From a virus, in the IMG/VR virus record IMGVR_UViG_3300013132_005385, positions 55,742 to 119,741 of that record: a stretch of 64,000 bases of DNA; one strand, given 5' to 3'. Below are positions 57,923-64,000 of this stretch, piece after piece. Every line of letters starts with the position of its first letter. Position 1 is the first letter of the stretch. The notes beneath the pieces were generated by a model. The model worked only from the letters and a program-made list of their open reading frames with translations, had not been told where the DNA came from and made no database searches. Position numbers and translations under genes: made by a program.

Positions 57923-58929
57923 TATTTAAAATTTAATATTTTAGCAGATATATCCCGCATCTCGTCTATATAATTGAGCTTAACTGAATAATCATTCTCG
58001 AAAAAATCATCGAATAATTGTACATCAAAAAAATCAGCGGACAGAACGCCAAACTTAGACAGAGTTTTAGTGTTGTATATTTGCTCTATTTGATTTTTTA
58101 TGGGCATAACCAACAATTTTTTACCGAGAAATAAACACTCGGAAGTTGTTTGGAATCCAGTGTGACATATGACTCCTCTACATTTTATTAATTTCTCGGT
58201 GAATGCTAATCTATCTATAGGTCTCAGAGAAACATTCTCAAAATCTGAGGGATCTTTTATTTGACTATGAAATATGTAGAATTTTTGATGAGGAAATAAT
58301 GTGAAGAATTTAACCTGATCCTCAACAGAGATAGAACTCAGATAGCACAGATAAAAGTCATCTTTGGGTAGGTTTACTATTCTAATCGAGCTTCTAATTA
58401 TTGGAAAAAAATCATTTTCGTTTTCCTTTAAATAGTCAAATGCTATGTAATCGCTGACCGGACACACAAACTTTGTGACCATTTTATTTGAGAAAAAATT
58501 AGGCGAAAGATTCTTTAGAAACCTTTTATTTGATAAAAATTTATATTGATTGCTTATTCCTAGAACCCTTTTTCTCCTGAATATCCCTGCCCAACAGGTA
58601 ACGGGTTCGAAATCCGAAATCACTATATCATATTTTCTCGCATCCACCGAAAGGGATGATCTTATAAGTCCTATAATATTAATGTTTCTAATGGTTTTAA
58701 GAATTGATATTCCGCCATCGCTAACATCTAAGCTTAGTCCTTCAAATTTATATTTAATATTTAGATCACCAAAATCTATTTGGGAGAAAGTTCCCGACAG
58801 ACACACATCTATTGATTCTATCTGATCTGAATGGTTCTTTTCCAGGTATTTTATTATTTCCTTGGATCTAGTTAGATGCCCATTCCCCGTGCATTGTATG
58901 CCATATAATATTTTAAGCTTCTTTTTCAT
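57922..58929 (-). CDS. GT-B glycosyltransferase (MJ1255/VC2487-like)
   Basis: ILYGIQ.TGNGH.TRS, ISDFEP, GF.T.SE....GK, Q.EQ..N. Confidence 0.85.
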   Translation of the reverse strand: MKKKLKILYGIQCTGNGHLTRSKEIIKYLEKNHSDQIESIDVCLSGTFSQIDFGDLNIKYKFEGLSLDVSDGGISILKTIRNINIIGLIRSSLSVDARKYDIVISDFEPVTCWAGIFRRKRVLGISNQYKFLSNKRFLKNLSPNFFSNKMVTKFVCPVSDYIAFDYLKENENDFFPIIRSSIRIVNLPKDDFYLCYLSSISVEDQVKFFTLFPHQKFYIFHSQIKDPSDFENVSLRPIDRLAFTEKLIKCRGVICHTGFQTTSECLFLGKKLLVMPIKNQIEQIYNTKTLSKFGVLSADFFDVQLFDDFFENDYSVKLNYIDEMRDISAKILNFK

Positions 58930-59070
58930 AGCAAAAATCTCTTAGCGGAGATTCTGAATTTTAACCAATCCTTTGCTTGATTTCCAGATGTGATCTGCCC
59001 ACATTTGTCTTTTGATTTTTACCATAGAAATTAATTTAGTTTCGCTTCCAAAATAATTTGAATCTAAACT

Positions 59071-59100
59071 AAAAACCTCAGATAAAATCTGAGGTTTTTT
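59071..59100 (-). terminator. intrinsic terminator
   Basis: AAAAACCTCAGAT/ATCTGAGGTTTTT. Confidence 0.8.
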
Positions 59101-59105
59101 ATTGC

Positions 59106-59384
59106 TTAAAGGCTCCAAGCTGGATTGGCTATAACCAATTTACCATTTTCTATTCTTGGGATTCTTCCCGTGTCATATGGGTCTGCATATTCGATATCAT
59201 CCTGGTAGAACTTCTGTCCATCAAACATGATGTAATTGGACTCATCCTTACCTCTGTGGCTCCACCCTTGTCCTCTTAGAGAATCGTGAGTTGCGTCATC
59301 GACAGTTGGTTTTCCGAATATCCTGTTCCAGAAGCTTTCGTTGGTGTTCTGGACAAATGATTCATATTCGTAAAGATGCTTCAT
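59106..59384 (-). CDS. hypothetical late protein
   Basis: N-terminus MKHLYEYESF...NES; GATATATA upstream. Confidence 0.65.
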   Translation of the reverse strand: MKHLYEYESFVQNTNESFWNRIFGKPTVDDATHDSLRGQGWSHRGKDESNYIMFDGQKFYQDDIEYADPYDTGRIPRIENGKLVIANPAWSL

Positions 59385-59425
59385 GATGATAATTTTTATC
59401 TATATATCTCATGAGTTCTGAAATG

Positions 59426-59499
59426 TACTCCCTATGGGATTCGAACCCACACCTTGTAGTTTTTGAAACTACTGCCTCTACCAATTGGGCTAAGAGATC
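59426..59499 (-). tRNA. tRNA-Leu(CAA), short variable loop, imperfect acceptor stem
   Basis: GTAGT-TTCAAAA-ACTAC anticodon arm, TTCGAAT T-loop. Confidence 0.7.
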
Positions 59500-59507
59500 A
59501 AATATAG

Positions 59508-59581
59508 AGATTCTGGAGGGATTCGAACCCCCAACCCTCTGATCCGAAGTCAGATGCTCTAGTCCGTTGAGCTACAGAACC
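59508..59581 (-). tRNA. tRNA-Arg(TCG)
   Basis: TCTGA-CTTCGGA-TCAGA; full cloverleaf. Confidence 0.9.
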
Positions 59582-59675
59582 ATGTCGGGCTTAGACACCA
59601 TCGCAGCCGCCTTAGTGCTTTGCCCTGTCTGAATGGATTGTGGCACGATGCGGCTTGACCCATTTCCATTCATTG

Positions 59676-59763
59676 CGGAGAGAGCGGGATTCGAACCCGC
59701 GGCACCCTTTAGGGGTGCACACGCTTTCCAAGCGTGCTCCATAAGCCTCTCGGACATCTCTCC
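59676..59763 (-). tRNA. tRNA-Ser(GGA)
   Basis: CACGC-TTGGAAA-GCGTG; long variable arm. Confidence 0.93.
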
Positions 59764-59766
59764 TTT

Positions 59767-60147
59767 TTATATTAGTTCCCAGAATACTTCAGTTAGAAAT
59801 TTATCTGGATCCTTTATCGTCATCAATTCCTTTTTATGTTCCTCGTTAAATTGTGCTATTTCTTCAGGTTTATCATTTGACCAAAGACCAATTTGGTCGA
59901 AATGATTAAGGCGTGCTAGCCTAACCAATTCATTATAGTCTCTGTCCCTGAGATATCCCTTGAGAGGCATTAATCTGCCCACGCAACTGTTCCATTTCAG
60001 TCTCCTGCCGTCATATGTCACATAATAGTAGTCAATATCGTCTTCCCCAATAGCAACCAATCTTTCGATTTCCCAGCTGCAGGTGATAACGAATTGTCCC
60101 TTGAGTTTCTCAAATTCCTCGAGGATCTTCTTTAGATTTTCATTCAT
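59767..60147 (-). CDS. hypothetical protein within tRNA array
   Basis: Start reassigned to MNENLKK; the upstream extension overlaps tRNAs. Confidence 0.65.
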   Translation of the reverse strand: MNENLKKILEEFEKLKGQFVITCSWEIERLVAIGEDDIDYYYVTYDGRRLKWNSCVGRLMPLKGYLRDRDYNELVRLARLNHFDQIGLWSNDKPEEIAQFNEEHKKELMTIKDPDKFLTEVFWELI

Positions 60148-60163
60148 CTCCCATTTTAATTTG

Positions 60164-60244
60164 TACCCGGGGTGGGACTCGAACCCACACGTCCGAAGAC
60201 ACTGGTTCCTAAGACCAGCGCGTCTACCGTTCCGCCACCCGGGC
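60164..60244 (-). tRNA. tRNA-Leu(TAG)
   Basis: CTGGT-CTTAGGA-ACCAG. Confidence 0.93.
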
Positions 60245-60257
60245 ATTTTTATTTTTG

Positions 60258-60342
60258 TACCGAGGGTGGGATTCGAACCCACACGGACCCTGCGGTCCAG
60301 GGGATTTTAAGTCCCCCGCGGCTACCCTTACGCCACCTCGGC
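60258..60342 (-). tRNA. tRNA-Leu(TAA)
   Basis: GGGGA-CTTAAAA-TCCCC. Confidence 0.92.
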
Positions 60343-60361
60343 ATTAATGCCTCTCATTATT

Positions 60362-60574
60362 TCAAACCAACGCTCTCTCAGCATTCTCAGATAGAAATTC
60401 AACGGATCCAACAAAAAGTCTTTTTTCAAAGAGCGGATTATATCTGCCTGAAATCAGATCATCATACGAGATCAGCTTGTATTCCAGTCCCCTATCAATC
60501 GCTCCGTAAAGTGCGCATGCACAATCGAAGTGATGTGGAAGGGTTCTTTCCTCGTTTGACTGAATGTAAATCAT
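60362..60574 (-). CDS. short ORF, possibly a truncated N-terminal fragment of an ATP-grasp-type protein
   Basis: A..G....G...FVGSVEF; host-type promoter upstream. Confidence 0.4.
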   Translation of the reverse strand: MIYIQSNEERTLPHHFDCACALYGAIDRGLEYKLISYDDLISGRYNPLFEKRLFVGSVEFLSENAERALV

Positions 60575-60613
60575 AGCGCAAATATAATCAATTTTTTCAA
60601 ATAAAAAAATAAA

Positions 60614-60643
60614 TGGAGCCTCGACCGGGAATCAAACCCGGTA
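60614..60643 (-). pseudogene. tRNA 3'-half remnant
   Basis: CCGGG-TTTGATT-CCCGG-TCGAGGC-T-CCA with no matching 5' half adjacent. Confidence 0.7.
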
Positions 60644-60679
60644 GCTCATTTAGATATATAATATAATTAAAAATGAGCT

Positions 60680-61192
60680 ATGGAAAAACAAATACTTTTG
60701 GATAGAATATCTAATGGACATTCTATTCGAAAAATTGCCAAGGAATTTGGAAAGGGATATCAAACCATTAGATTTTGGATCAAAAAATATAATCTTAAAA
60801 CTGAGTACAGTAAAAACAATGAGGATCTTTTTCATTGTAGAAGATGTAAGGATAAATTAGATCAATGTAATACATATAAATACAAGCAAAAAAGAATTCT
60901 TTGTAAAAAATGTATAGCGGAACAAAAATATCATGAATTTAAGAAATTTAAAGAGGAATGCGTTAAATATAAAGGAGGAAAATGTGAAGAATGCGGATAT
61001 CATAAATCACTTTCCGCTTTAGAATTTCACCATAAAGACCCATCAGAAAAAGATTTTGAAATATCTAAAAATAAAAGTTCCAAATTTCCAAATGAAAGAG
61101 TAATTATAGAACTTGAAAAATGTGAATTACTGTGCTCTAATTGTCACATAGAAAAACATGAAAAAATATTTTTAGAAAAATTACATAGATAA
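60680..61192 (+). CDS. HNH homing-type endonuclease with N-terminal HTH
   Basis: SIRKIAKE HTH, CEECGY, LEFHH.DP, LCSNCH...H. Confidence 0.85.
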   Translation: MEKQILLDRISNGHSIRKIAKEFGKGYQTIRFWIKKYNLKTEYSKNNEDLFHCRRCKDKLDQCNTYKYKQKRILCKKCIAEQKYHEFKKFKEECVKYKGGKCEECGYHKSLSALEFHHKDPSEKDFEISKNKSSKFPNERVIIELEKCELLCSNCHIEKHEKIFLEKLHR

Positions 61193-61199
61193 GATTATT

Positions 61200-61274
61200 T
61201 GGAGCTTCCACTCAGACTCGAACTGAGGATTCCTGATTACAAGTCAGGTGTTTTACCAGCTAAACTATGGAAGC
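61200..61274 (-). tRNA. tRNA-Thr(TGT)
   Basis: CCTGA-CTTGTAA-TCAGG; encoded CCA. Confidence 0.92.
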
Positions 61275-61283
61275 TTTTTATTG

Positions 61284-61356
61284 TCGGGGTGAGAGGGCTC
61301 AAACCTCCGGCCTCTCGGTCCCAAACCGAGCGCTCTATCAACTGAGCTACACCCCG
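61284..61356 (-). tRNA. tRNA-Pro(TGG)
   Basis: CTCGG-TTTGGGA-CCGAG; C1-G72, A73. Confidence 0.9.
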
Positions 61357-61451
61357 ATGAAGGCTATTCAACACTTGTACTTCATGTTGAAAGATCGATA
61401 TTAGCATCCAAGAATGCCTGTCAACCATCTCTGATCAATCTTTTCGCCTTG

Positions 61452-61522
61452 TTGTCCCGGGAGGATTCGAACCTCCACACTCAGAGCCAAAATCTGAGGT
61501 CCTGTCATTAGACGACGGGGCA
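61452..61522 (-). tRNA. tRNA-Gln(TTG)
   Basis: TCAGA-TTTTGGC-TCTGA. Confidence 0.88.
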
Positions 61523-61530
61523 ATAATTAG

Positions 61531-61602
61531 TAGTTCCGGGCAGAATCGAACTGCCATTTGGAGATTAGAAGTCACCCGTTCTATCCATTGAACTACGGAA
61601 CC
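61531..61602 (-). tRNA. tRNA-Arg(TCT)
   Basis: GGTGA-CTTCTAA-TCTCC. Confidence 0.88.
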
Positions 61603-61702
61603 ATATCTCGGTTACTGGATTCCATACCAGCATTTATTCTCTTAGCGAGAATCGACATAATTTATCGGGACGTCTCCCGAGGTGATTAGTCCAAACCAAT
61701 AG

Positions 61703-61785
61703 TGACTCTATCGGGACTCGAACCCGAACGCCAAGCTAGGCCAGGATCCTTAATCCTGTGCGTATACCAATTCCGCCATAGAGCC
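61703..61785 (-). tRNA. tRNA-Leu(AAG)
   Basis: CAGGA-TTAAGGA-TCCTG; Leu-type D-loop, variable arm, A73. Confidence 0.88.
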
Positions 61786-61899
61786 ACAGTGCAGCGTTAA
61801 ATAGGCGATGTAATGTATTTCCGTCCACGCTGCAGAGACGTAATTACCATCATTTCCACGAAAGCAGTTCACTACCTTCGCTTTAGTTGCCACTTAGTG

Positions 61900-61985
61900 C
61901 GGAAGACGGCAGGATCGAACTGCACCCGAATTAACGGGCTCAACGCTTAGCAGGCGTGACCACTCTCCGTCGTGGATCATCTTCC
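61900..61985 (-). tRNA. tRNA-Ser(GCT), 8/4 fold
   Basis: Loop CTGCTAA; acceptor GGAAGATG/CGTCTTCC, T-stem GCAG/CTGC. Confidence 0.82.
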
Positions 61986-62078
61986 AAAGGGCCCCGCTTG
62001 CATTATTCATACCTTCATAAGGGCTTAATTTCATTCATCCAACGCGGGGCAACATGGAGAACTACTTCCTTACTTCTG

Positions 62079-62163
62079 CGGAGGAGAGAGGACTCGAACC
62101 CCCACTCCGAATAACGGAGAACGGTTTTCGAAACCGCTGCAGTACCATTATGCTTACTCCTCC
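62079..62163 (-). tRNA. tRNA-Ser(CGA)
   Basis: GCGGT-TTCGAAA-ACCGT; long variable arm. Confidence 0.9.
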
Positions 62164-62167
62164 GGAG

Positions 62168-62242
62168 GGTGCTCGACCGGATTCGAACCGGCGATCTTCT
62201 GAACCACAATCAGACGCTTTAACCAGCTAAGCTACGAGCACC
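62168..62242 (-). tRNA. tRNA-His(GTG)
   Basis: TCTGA-TTGTGGT-TCAGA; G-1:C73. Confidence 0.93.
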
Positions 62243-62248
62243 ATATAA

Positions 62249-62406
62249 AAAATCAGAGAATATGAGCAAGAGTGTTTTTCTTTTACTATTGCGTTTACCA
62301 ATTCCGCCATCCCCCGTGATGCGTTTTAATTAGTCGGGGGAGTAGGGGTCGAACCTACAAATGAATAGTTCCCATACGAAGTAACTCTCACTTTGCTACT
62401 GATTTT
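62249..62406 (-). ncRNA. YrlA-like Y RNA / circularly permuted tRNA mimic
   Basis: Order T-arm, acceptor stem closed by loop, D-arm, all enclosed by a long terminal stem. Confidence 0.65.
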
Positions 62407-62492
62407 GGCGGAGAGAGGAGGTGTCGATCCCCATACCCGAAGGTACCGCTAGTTTTCAAGACTAGGTTTAGCGCCGGCTAAATTCTCTCTCC
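62406..62492 (-). tRNA. tRNA-Ser(TGA), 8/4 fold
   Basis: CTAGT-CTTGAAA-ACTAG; acceptor GGAGAGAG/CTCTCTCC; encoded CCA. Confidence 0.85.
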
Positions 62493-62501
62493 AAATGAGA
62501 C

Positions 62502-62517
62502 CAATATGTCAAAGAAC
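62502..62517 (-). promoter_or_regulatory. boxA-like antitermination element
   Basis: GTTCTTTGACATATTG just 5' of the first tRNA. Confidence 0.55.
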
Positions 62518-62523
62518 CTATAA

Positions 62524-62562
62524 CAATAAAAAACCCGAGACTTTTTGAAGGCCCCGGGTTTT
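62524..62562 (-). terminator. terminator/attenuator hairpin ahead of tRNA array
   Basis: ACCCGGGGC/GTCTCGGGT stem followed by TTTTTATTG. Confidence 0.8.
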
Positions 62563-62586
62563 CATTGAGGATTAAATCTTTAGTGA

Positions 62587-62685
62587 TTATGACCCCTTAA
62601 CTTCATACACAGGACCTGTTCCACCCGGTCTTGATAGACTTGGCGTATGCAGGGATAACTGTGATGTTTGTCTTAGAGTTTTCAT
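62587..62685 (-). CDS. 32-aa leader peptide of tRNA operon (not in ORF track)
   Basis: MKTLRQTSQLSLHTPSLSRPGGTGPVYEVKGS, between promoters and terminator. Confidence 0.65.
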   Translation of the reverse strand: MKTLRQTSQLSLHTPSLSRPGGTGPVYEVKGS

Positions 62686-62697
62686 CGCTTGTGAGTT

Positions 62698-62748
62698 TAT
62701 ATATCCTTTTCTCTTTTTGAATTATACCCCAAATGTAGGGAAAGTTTC
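62698..62748 (-). promoter_or_regulatory. stacked promoter motifs (ECF-like, host-type, late-type)
   Basis: GAAACT-N15-GTATAA 62722-62748; TACATTTG 62730-62737; GATATATA 62698-62705. Confidence 0.6.
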
Positions 62749-62784
62749 TGAAATAAAAAAATTTTTCTGAAAAATAATTTGGAT

Positions 62785-63711
62785 TTATTTTAGTCCAGCA
62801 ACGGGAACGTGTATTATCTTTCCAAATGGAGGCATATTATAAACCTTGGGAGAACAAACAAACCAGAATGTCTTTTTAGCGTATTTCCTTATACCATATT
62901 TGCTAGGCTCAGGCATTTCTCCCCCAGTATCGGTTAGGTACACGAAAACGGATGGATTGATCTTATTTTTTTCGACCCATTGAAATGGAGGAATGAATCC
63001 CCTCATGTTTCCACCGGTCGATGCTATCTTCGTGAAATCAGGATCCTGTCCCTTTTTAACCCGGTCAACATTGTCTATATCGTCACTACAGTATATTATG
63101 ATTGTCTCGTCTGCATCGAATTTTTTAACCAATCCCATTACTTCCTTAATAAAGAGCTTGATTTGCGGTTTAGAAATCGAAGATGATGTGTCAACAGCGG
63201 CAACAATAGTCTTTAGTGTGTCATCGCCTATTTGCTTCCTGCCATACATAATGTCTCCCCCAGCCAGATATCTCTTATTGGGCAATACCCATTCAGAGGA
63301 TTTAAAGGTCTGATCAAAGAATTTCTTCAGCTCTTTCTTCCAATCCACTACAGGCTCCGTACTCTTGAGCTTTTTTATCATTTTTTTGGCTTCATCCGAA
63401 AGATTGGATCTTGATGATGCACCGGATGAAAGTTCATCCCAATTAGGTTTTTGAACTTTTTTAGCCATCTTTGATGTACCGATCTTTTGTACTTCTCTTG
63501 GCTTTTCGACATTGATCTCTTTCTTAGCGCTATCGAAATCTCTAAAAGTTTTAATGCCTGATCCTCCTGATCCTACGGGGGCGATTTTTACATCCTCAAT
63601 TTCGTCATCGAATTCAGGATTTGATGCGTTTGGATTGTCGGTGCCACCATCCGGTTTTTTCCCCTTGTCCTTCTCCGGAACTACTGAGTAATTTCCCTTT
63701 TTAACTATCAT
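62785..63711 (-). CDS. vWA-like domain protein (DUF2201 C-terminal type)
   Basis: VDWKKEL, MIDAS VDTSSS, GG....PF, YLTD. Confidence 0.8.
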   Translation of the reverse strand: MIVKKGNYSVVPEKDKGKKPDGGTDNPNASNPEFDDEIEDVKIAPVGSGGSGIKTFRDFDSAKKEINVEKPREVQKIGTSKMAKKVQKPNWDELSSGASSRSNLSDEAKKMIKKLKSTEPVVDWKKELKKFFDQTFKSSEWVLPNKRYLAGGDIMYGRKQIGDDTLKTIVAAVDTSSSISKPQIKLFIKEVMGLVKKFDADETIIIYCSDDIDNVDRVKKGQDPDFTKIASTGGNMRGFIPPFQWVEKNKINPSVFVYLTDTGGEMPEPSKYGIRKYAKKTFWFVCSPKVYNMPPFGKIIHVPVAGLK

Positions 63712-63718
63712 GTTTCTA

Positions 63719-64000
<282 letters not shown>

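Follow-up and report, generated by a model that had tools for sequence, protein, structure and literature searches.

The 64 kb analyzed here (the window) form the right end of a 119,741-bp viral contig (IMG/VR record IMGVR_UViG_3300013132_005385; 36.7% G+C). On its minus strand, an operon of transfer RNA (tRNA) genes is preceded by a promoter motif, a short open reading frame (ORF), an intrinsic terminator, and a boxA motif. We propose, with a probability of about 75%, that this region is a ribosome-mediated (leader-peptide) transcription attenuator in front of the tRNA operon of a freshwater giant phage. An earlier sequence-only reading of the same DNA had suggested such an attenuator, and all of the elements it listed were found in place. 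Two comparative results support it: the composition of the leader covaries with the tRNA array across families, and a partner for the 5′ arm of the terminator recurs within the ORF.

Leader composition covaries with the tRNA array

The leader ORF (MKTLRQTSQLSLHTPSLSRPGGTGPVYEVKGS, translated from the window sequence) begins with ATG and has 32 codons plus a stop (62685-62587, minus strand), as the sequence-only reading had described. Codons 3 to 20 (62679-62626, minus strand) encode 18 consecutive residues drawn from Thr, Leu, Arg, Gln, Ser, His, and Pro, and each of the seven is used. These are exactly the amino acids of the downstream array, which comprises 14 tRNAs (13 called by ARAGORN and 1 by Rfam); the proximal tRNA block (62493-61200) already covers all seven. 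The 18-residue run is the longest of such composition in the six frames of the whole 119.7-kb contig, where the runners-up reach 15 and 13 residues. Among the other ATG-started ORFs of 25 to 45 codons (333 in the set), the longest such run is 11. The seven residues have a share of 0.341 in 98 long ORFs of the contig. From this value the chance of an 18/18 run, a figure that the earlier reading had left to be computed, is p^18 = 3.8e-9, which places the run far beyond chance.

That reading had also held that many leader codons are exact matches to array anticodons. Watson-Crick cognates account for 13 of 21 leader codons, but 12.2 are expected from contig codon usage alone. The match between leader and array is one of amino acids or isoacceptor sets, not of exact codon-anticodon pairs.

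Viral contigs were surveyed with the pattern T6-N(2-14)-GGTTCTTTGACAT, a T-run followed by the 13-mer core of the boxA motif, with no ORF criterion. The 82 oriented matches represent 80 distinct places. A tRNA gene lies on the same strand within 700 nucleotides (nt) in 58 of the 82, and in 49 of the 82 the first ARAGORN tRNA starts 12 to 30 nt after the motif. The remaining 24 matches, which mostly lack the extended ...NTTGG, look like chance. An ATG-started ORF of 29 to 52 codons ends shortly before the terminator in 56 of the 58 tRNA-linked matches (54 distinct places). Two loci (L067 and L075) with a GTG-started frame, spotted by eye, were excluded. At a 50% peptide-identity threshold, the 54 leaders fall into 15 families.

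For a permutation test, one representative was taken per family and the arrays were permuted among the 15 families (200,000 permutations). The mean share of leader residues present in the leader's own array was 0.628, compared with 0.461 (standard deviation, 0.027) for permuted arrays, and 0.943 of the amino acids of an array were contained in its own leader. None of the 200,000 permutations reached the observed value for either measure. The result was the same for the 11 families whose locus continues for 400 nt or more beyond the last tRNA (0.707 versus 0.516). The first 65% of the leaders matched better (221/327) than the tails did (95/176; Fisher p = 0.004). Comparison of leader content with the array in relatives had been set beforehand as a check, and its outcome was strongly positive across 15 unrelated families.

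Individual pairs illustrate this match. An array for Asp (two), Glu (three), Val (two), Leu (four), Ala (two), and Trp stands behind the leader MKNLLDILMAAVLMVDVLLWAAEEDKLCAVG; one for Ser, Ser, Thr, Cys, His, Thr, Ser, Glu, Asp, and Met stands behind MKNLFHTTTSSSTSTSSCDEDTRALLRDR; one for Cys, Thr, Gln, Pro, Leu, Glu, Tyr, and Phe stands behind MMATYLTYSPFSLPQQLCEELFYALKEGKYSG; and an array for 18 amino acids is paired with MQTQMNHIIENCFSQVAYAKWTGNDRDLGFRR. The largest family contains 11 distinct leader sequences, all of 114 nt, in which the frame is kept across 18 synonymous and 26 nonsynonymous variants. Of its 24 informative members, just three have a tRNA-Ala, and these are the three whose leader contains Ala. 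Since these three share one leader sequence, the coincidence is a single event and is given as an anecdote.

The window's own family has two further members. In a close relative (L001; neighboring protein 90% identical), the leader is the same apart from three changes in the tail, all nonsynonymous. The other (L251) was added by a metagenome scan, in which 10/119 among the matches listed were tRNA linked; its ORF stops one codon earlier. Leader codons 1 to 20 are identical in the window, L001, and L251, at the nucleotide level too. A distant relative (L005; neighboring protein 49% identical) has the same layout and a different array. There, a TATATTTG box is followed by a 30-codon ORF (MNKNFNILPLHSTLLSSSRRPITPAKILGN), a terminator, the identical 13-mer, and tRNA-Ser(TGA); the array has no tRNA-Gln, and the leader has no Gln. 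Scans of viral contigs for leader words returned only the close relative (L001/L006) and one chance match inside a gene (L007). Three relatives found through the DUF2201 protein encoded upstream (L002 to L004) have no tRNA within their flanks and were uninformative.

Terminator pairing, promoter, and boxA

The intrinsic terminator named in the earlier reading is present by sequence at 62561-62528 (minus strand). It consists of AAACCCGGGGC/GTCTCGGGTTT followed by T6, with an 11-bp stem, a 9-nt loop, and a predicted energy of −14.7 to −15.1 kcal/mol. An equivalent hairpin with a T-run was found in 15/15 leader families. The sequence-only reading had nominated the segment CCGGGT (62628-62623, minus strand) as a partner of the terminator 5′ arm. 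This segment is complementary to ACCCGG (62559-62554) in the window (−12.6 kcal/mol), but it is not conserved: L001 has CCGAGT, which lowers the pairing to −5.7 kcal/mol, and L251 has the same G-to-A change. A second candidate antiterminator strand, AGGUCCUG in codons 23 to 26 (62617-62610, minus strand), is predicted to pair with CGGGGCCU (62556-62549) in the 5′ arm. The energy of this pairing is −13.2 kcal/mol in the window and −13.8 kcal/mol in L001, where it is stronger because the arm has A in place of G (as it does in L251), so that a G-U pair becomes A-U.

Comparable partners were found across the survey. The segment that pairs best with the terminator 5′ arm ends 1 to 16 nt before the end of the ORF in 13/15 families, and it often nearly duplicates the 3′ arm. 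When the leader was dinucleotide-shuffled 500 times, pairing of equal quality arose no more than 25 times in 9/15 families; the corresponding counts are 265/500 for L037, 120/500 for L058, and 96/500 for L025. The distance from the stop codon to the 5′ arm is 20 to 34 nt in 15/15 families.

The 226-nt leader of the window folds better than shuffled sequences (z = −2.9). Minimum free energy folds predict a hairpin inside the ORF that joins segment 1 with segment 2 (62604-62667, minus strand). As modeled, the geometry is of the four-segment trp kind, in which the two halves of the ORF would form a long hairpin that a stalled ribosome would break. In folds of truncated RNA with the ribosomal A site at codons 2 to 19, this hairpin is broken, AGGUCCUG pairs with CGGGGCCU, and the terminator 5′ arm is paired with a probability of 0.80 to 0.85. 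With the A site at codons 20 to 32, pairing of the arm drops to 0.53 to 0.63 and comes from a local hairpin only. The range of stalls that would permit the antiterminator (codons 2 to 19) nearly coincides with the 18-codon run. In folds of leaders that still lack the 3′ arm, the 5′ arm paired more with the ORF for a stall at one-third of the ORF than for a ribosome at the stop codon in 15/15 families. Folding with ribosome-masked regions, as the earlier reading had suggested, favors the antiterminator upon stalling in truncated RNA, whereas at equilibrium the terminator usually dominates in full-length RNA.

The promoter motifs claimed upstream of the ORF are also present. A −7 box of the TAnnTTTG type, TACATTTG, lies at 62737-62730 (minus strand) and is followed by TATAAT. 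We take TAnnTTTG to be the −7 promoter element of Bacteroidota. It occurs in the 110 nt preceding the leader ATG in 11/15 families, compared with 134/1715 background windows. A GAAACTTT-like element stands a few bases 5′ of the TAnnTTTG box in the window, L033, L029, L074, L067, and L060; it may be a clade-specific promoter extension.

Behind the terminator is the boxA motif, which the earlier reading had described as boxA-like. The 13-mer GGTTCTTTGACAT (62518-62506) is extended by ATTGG to the 18-mer GGTTCTTTGACATNTTGG (62501-62518, minus strand). The T-run is 9 nt from boxA, and the 13-nt core is 12 nt from the first tRNA, gaps that leave no room for a separate promoter before that tRNA. Species-representative genomes contain the 18-mer at 120 or more places, and Bacteroidota taxa are named in about 50 of the 80 record titles listed (counted by eye). 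In 9/14 genome loci scanned with Rfam, the motif is 25 to 51 nt 5′ of a 23S ribosomal RNA (rRNA) gene. Spacer tRNAs or a 16S gene lie just upstream in 8 of those 9 loci; at L197, Rfam matched a 16S gene and no tRNA. No copy was found before 16S rRNA genes when GGTTCTTTGACATNTTGG was sought there, as expected for a motif that precedes 23S. Enterobacterial rRNA (rrn) operons have a spacer boxA in the equivalent place, and the phage motif resembles the E. coli boxA. Judged by its sequence, the 18-mer behind the leader terminator is the boxA found in rrn spacers of Bacteroidota. This motif and the TAnnTTTG box point to a Bacteroidota host and to transcription by the host RNA polymerase. In rrn antitermination, boxA is used with NusB/NusE (PMC10250234), and Nus factors may likewise be recruited at the phage boxA.

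Proposed mechanism and alternative explanations

In the mechanism that we propose, host RNA polymerase would start at the Bacteroidota-type promoter and transcribe the 32-codon leader, whose codons 3 to 20 would sample all seven amino acids served by the operon tRNAs. If the leader is translated without hindrance, the halves of the ORF would re-pair, the terminator would form, and transcription would stop at 62528; in most other families, it is coverage of the ORF end by the ribosome that would let the terminator form. A ribosome stalled at any of the 18 codons for lack of charged cognate tRNA would leave codons 23 to 26 free, and these would pair with the terminator 5′ arm once the arm is made. 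Stalling would thereby raise read-through. The polymerase would read on, take up the Nus antitermination complex at boxA 10 nt further, and transcribe the tRNA genes. Their products would then speed translation of the leader and shut the operon again, giving negative feedback on decoding capacity. The shortage may arise from host shutoff, codon mismatch, or anticodon nucleases; to name an anticodon nuclease or tRNA depletion as the natural trigger is speculation.

Several observations weigh against this interpretation. At equilibrium, the terminator forms in the full-length window leader at 31/32 ribosome positions, and in 12/15 families it forms at any ribosome position. Because the terminator usually wins at equilibrium, control would have to be kinetic. 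With a ribosome at the stop codon of the window leader, the antiterminator is left free (0.77) and unmasked. The antiterminator complementarity in the window is marginal by itself, since 34/500 shuffles equal it. The sequence-only reading had looked to relatives for covariation of this pairing. An ORF-embedded partner of the 5′ arm does recur in 13/15 families, but the window's own family shows no covariation, because it has only three members, all at least ~93% alike. Over all families and given the amino acid, exact Watson-Crick codons number 143 versus 141.8 expected, which is no enrichment, and readable codons (275/316 versus 250.4 expected) are only mildly enriched. Some leaders fit their arrays poorly and are counted in the statistics. 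These include L025 (0.32), whose longest ORF probably starts upstream of the real start, and L029 (0.55), as well as L040 and L058 (0.17 to 0.18), whose arrays are cut by the locus end. Independence among the 15 families may be incomplete, and the 58 tRNA-linked matches come from loci chosen by T-run and boxA, so that the counts give no share of all phage tRNA arrays. A second TAnnTTTG box at 60586 (minus strand), upstream of a 70-codon ORF, may drive the distal five tRNAs independently.

Two of these points bear on whether the same elements could form a different kind of sensor, either one of reverse sign, in which efficient translation promotes read-through, or one of amino acid starvation or general translation stress. 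When exact codon-anticodon enrichment is lacking, the signal could be the supply of charged tRNA or of amino acids for these residues generally, and with a thermodynamically dominant terminator, the folds by themselves do not determine which way the switch works. A sensor of this kind is nevertheless unlikely. The 20 to 34 nt between stop codon and 5′ arm in 15/15 families put a terminating ribosome at too great a distance to melt the terminator, and the antiterminator strand lies inside the ORF end, where a translating ribosome would cover it. A general stress sensor would not need a leader whose composition follows the array family by family. The same correspondence speaks against an independent micropeptide, or a small RNA of ~200 nt with its own terminator, next to tRNAs that are transcribed from other promoters and resemble the leader in composition incidentally. 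Such an RNA or peptide would account for the folding of the leader (z = −2.9), for the 100% nucleotide conservation of codons 1 to 20 in three relatives, and for the internal promoter-like box at 60586. Yet the 15 leader families share no peptide sequence while all track their own arrays, and within a family the peptide drifts freely, with 26 nonsynonymous versus 18 synonymous variants and a stop shifted by one codon in L251. There is also no promoter space before the first tRNA, and a boxA right after a terminator makes sense only if polymerases pass that terminator. We therefore regard this explanation as very improbable.

Finally, the ORF might be an accident of an intergenic spacer and the terminator might merely end the upstream DUF2201 gene. 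The seven amino acids own 30/61 sense codons of the standard genetic code, and the set was chosen after the array had been seen. Even so, a run with p^18 = 3.8e-9 that is the longest in six frames of 119.7 kb, a design that recurs with different amino acid sets, and a promoter box between the upstream gene and the ORF leave chance with a very low probability. Of the readings weighed here, we prefer attenuation through translation of the leader.

Operon contents, known systems, and implications

The array opens with an atypical tRNA-Ser(TGA) gene (62493-62409, minus strand), which matches the Rfam tRNA-Sec model with 48.6 bits against a cutoff of 47. Its anticodon loop, CTTGAAA, was judged by eye to be that of Ser(TGA). 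ARAGORN misses this gene in the window and calls Ser(tga) in the equivalent position of L251 and L005. The 13 tRNA genes called by ARAGORN follow at 59425-62241 (minus strand), with small ORFs interspersed. The operon probably ends at a terminator-like site at 59071-59099, the only one on the minus strand besides the leader terminator. An Rfam Phe_leader match on the opposite strand (59024-59103, plus strand; 26.7 bits against a cutoff of 55) overlaps this hairpin and was treated as chance. Two further features lie within the operon. A piece resembling a tRNA 3′ end (T arm plus acceptor strand; 60579-60650, minus strand) enters a T7 run (60609-60603) and then a TATATTTG box (60586-60579); it may be a tRNA remnant with an internal promoter for the distal five tRNAs. 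On the opposite strand, midway along the operon, a 170-amino-acid ORF with an N-terminal helix-turn-helix domain (Pfam HTH_28; 60680-61192, plus strand) may be a mobile element or a homing-type insertion. Among the surveyed loci, ARAGORN called a suppressor-type tRNA with anticodon tta in the arrays after the motif of L074 and L083, which hints at stop-codon recoding in that phage lineage.

Between tRNA-Ser(TGA) and tRNA-His lies an acceptor-closed, circularly permuted tRNA-like module on a two-helix handle, resembling a Y RNA (62408-62242, minus strand). The 3′ part precedes the 5′ part, a 16-nt loop closes the acceptor stem, and ARAGORN finds the cloverleaf in circular mode only. Similar modules occupy array gaps in other families (L069:5610-5776, L023:9292-9464, L039:4217-4389, L039:3997-4142, and L029:11149-11298). 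In seven aligned copies (window, L001, L069, L023, two from L039, and L029), the flanks form the two-helix handle, 13/29 consensus pairs show compensatory changes, and the motifs GTAGCAA, TTACTTC, and TTCTC are conserved. A true permuted tRNA-Pro(GGG) that needs ligation was considered and dropped, as ARAGORN gives Leu(gag) when more flank is included. Because the handle covaries and the call shifts, a nondecoding tRNA mimic fits the module better. The module looks like the tRNA mimic of a YrlA-type Y RNA, with which it shares a closed-acceptor tRNA-like module on a stem made of the RNA's own 5′ and 3′ ends. Rfam gave no YrlA match for it (E up to 1), and no TROVE or DUF2828 match was found in the contig, which is 39% complete; the DUF2828 control matched nowhere either.

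Upstream of the promoter box and leader ORF is a gene for a VWA-like DUF2201 protein (62785-63711, minus strand). Beyond it, an open-ended ORF of GDTGTTG-like, collagen-type triplet repeats (63719-64000, minus strand) runs off the contig end. Because CheckV puts the completeness of the 119,741-bp contig at 39%, the whole phage genome is probably ~300 kb. Two sequencing runs, both labeled lake water, hold most of the stretch (X1, share 1.00, which may be the source sample; X2, share 0.52); small word shares in other public runs were set aside in inferring habitat. A contig of 2,284 nt from an RNA library (X21, record 16), from a ~95% relative, spans 62247-62774 across the terminator. It was discarded, as it enters the upstream gene and may be DNA.

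Among known systems, the amino acid operon attenuators of enterobacteria (trpL, hisL, leuL, and pheL and the multivalent thrL and ilvL) are similar in plan. They have a promoter-proximal short ORF with diagnostic codons and an intrinsic terminator before the regulated genes, and the 5′ arm of this terminator pairs with a segment in or near the ORF end. In them, too, the position of the ribosome decides the structure, the terminator is more stable than the antiterminator, and control is kinetic, as is known for trp attenuation. However, those attenuators regulate enzymes, whereas the phage system would regulate tRNAs, whose action on the sensor would be direct. The phage leader would sense several amino acids together, seven in the window and as many as 18 in family L085, without long runs of a single codon, and boxA follows the phage terminator. 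We know of no such leader-peptide attenuators in Bacteroidota. The pheST attenuator of E. coli likewise places a component of the translation apparatus, a tRNA synthetase operon, under leader-peptide attenuation, but there a single amino acid is sensed and a protein gene is controlled. T-box riboswitches also couple tRNA status to read-through by a choice between terminator and antiterminator; unlike the leader proposed here, they bind uncharged tRNA directly and need no ORF. An Rfam scan of 58500-64000 found no T-box, and nothing at the site matched a known family of leaders or riboswitches. The likeness to rrn antitermination lies in the phage 18-mer, identical to the motif 25 to 51 nt 5′ of 23S rRNA, but the phage boxA heads a tRNA operon, directly behind a putatively conditional terminator.

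The nearest published case found is the trn tRNA operon of Anabaena PCC 7120, which, in the main texts of two reports, is induced under translational stress (PMC8421152, PMC10272220). As described there, its accessory tRNA genes are likewise off by default and come on once translation is compromised, whereas control is exerted at the promoter level through the repressor TrcR and direct repeats. Neither main text contains the words attenuat-, leader, or terminator. The literature search, based on listings and abstract openings, returned no description of a leader-peptide attenuator for tRNA genes. For the literature searched, the claim of novelty made in the sequence-only reading holds. The class of mechanism is classical; the novelty lies in the RNA-gene target, in a multi-amino-acid leader whose composition changes along with the array, and in the link to boxA.

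To our knowledge, the control that phages exert over their own tRNA genes has hardly been studied. The reason why phages carry tRNAs is described as still debated (PMC10264068). If the attenuator proposed here is real, an array-matched leader would show that the phage measures the decoding of those very codons, and the debate could be tested with simple reporters. We lean slightly toward the broader view that phage tRNA operons are self-regulating, with a modular cassette that gauges decoding of the operon's own codons and releases a processivity-modified polymerase only on shortage. Such a cassette would consist of a promoter, a leader ORF made of the operon's own amino acids, a terminator/antiterminator, and a host-type boxA. 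With the leader rewritten whenever the tRNA set changes, it would be a general, evolvable multi-input sensor, and through it the phage could also react when host tRNAs are cleaved or depleted. The combination of T-run, boxA, and tRNA offers an annotation signature for such operons. Leader-peptide attenuation would then extend to RNA genes and to Bacteroidota, it would be linked to Nus/boxA antitermination, and phage genomes would contain a natural sensor with up to 18 inputs.

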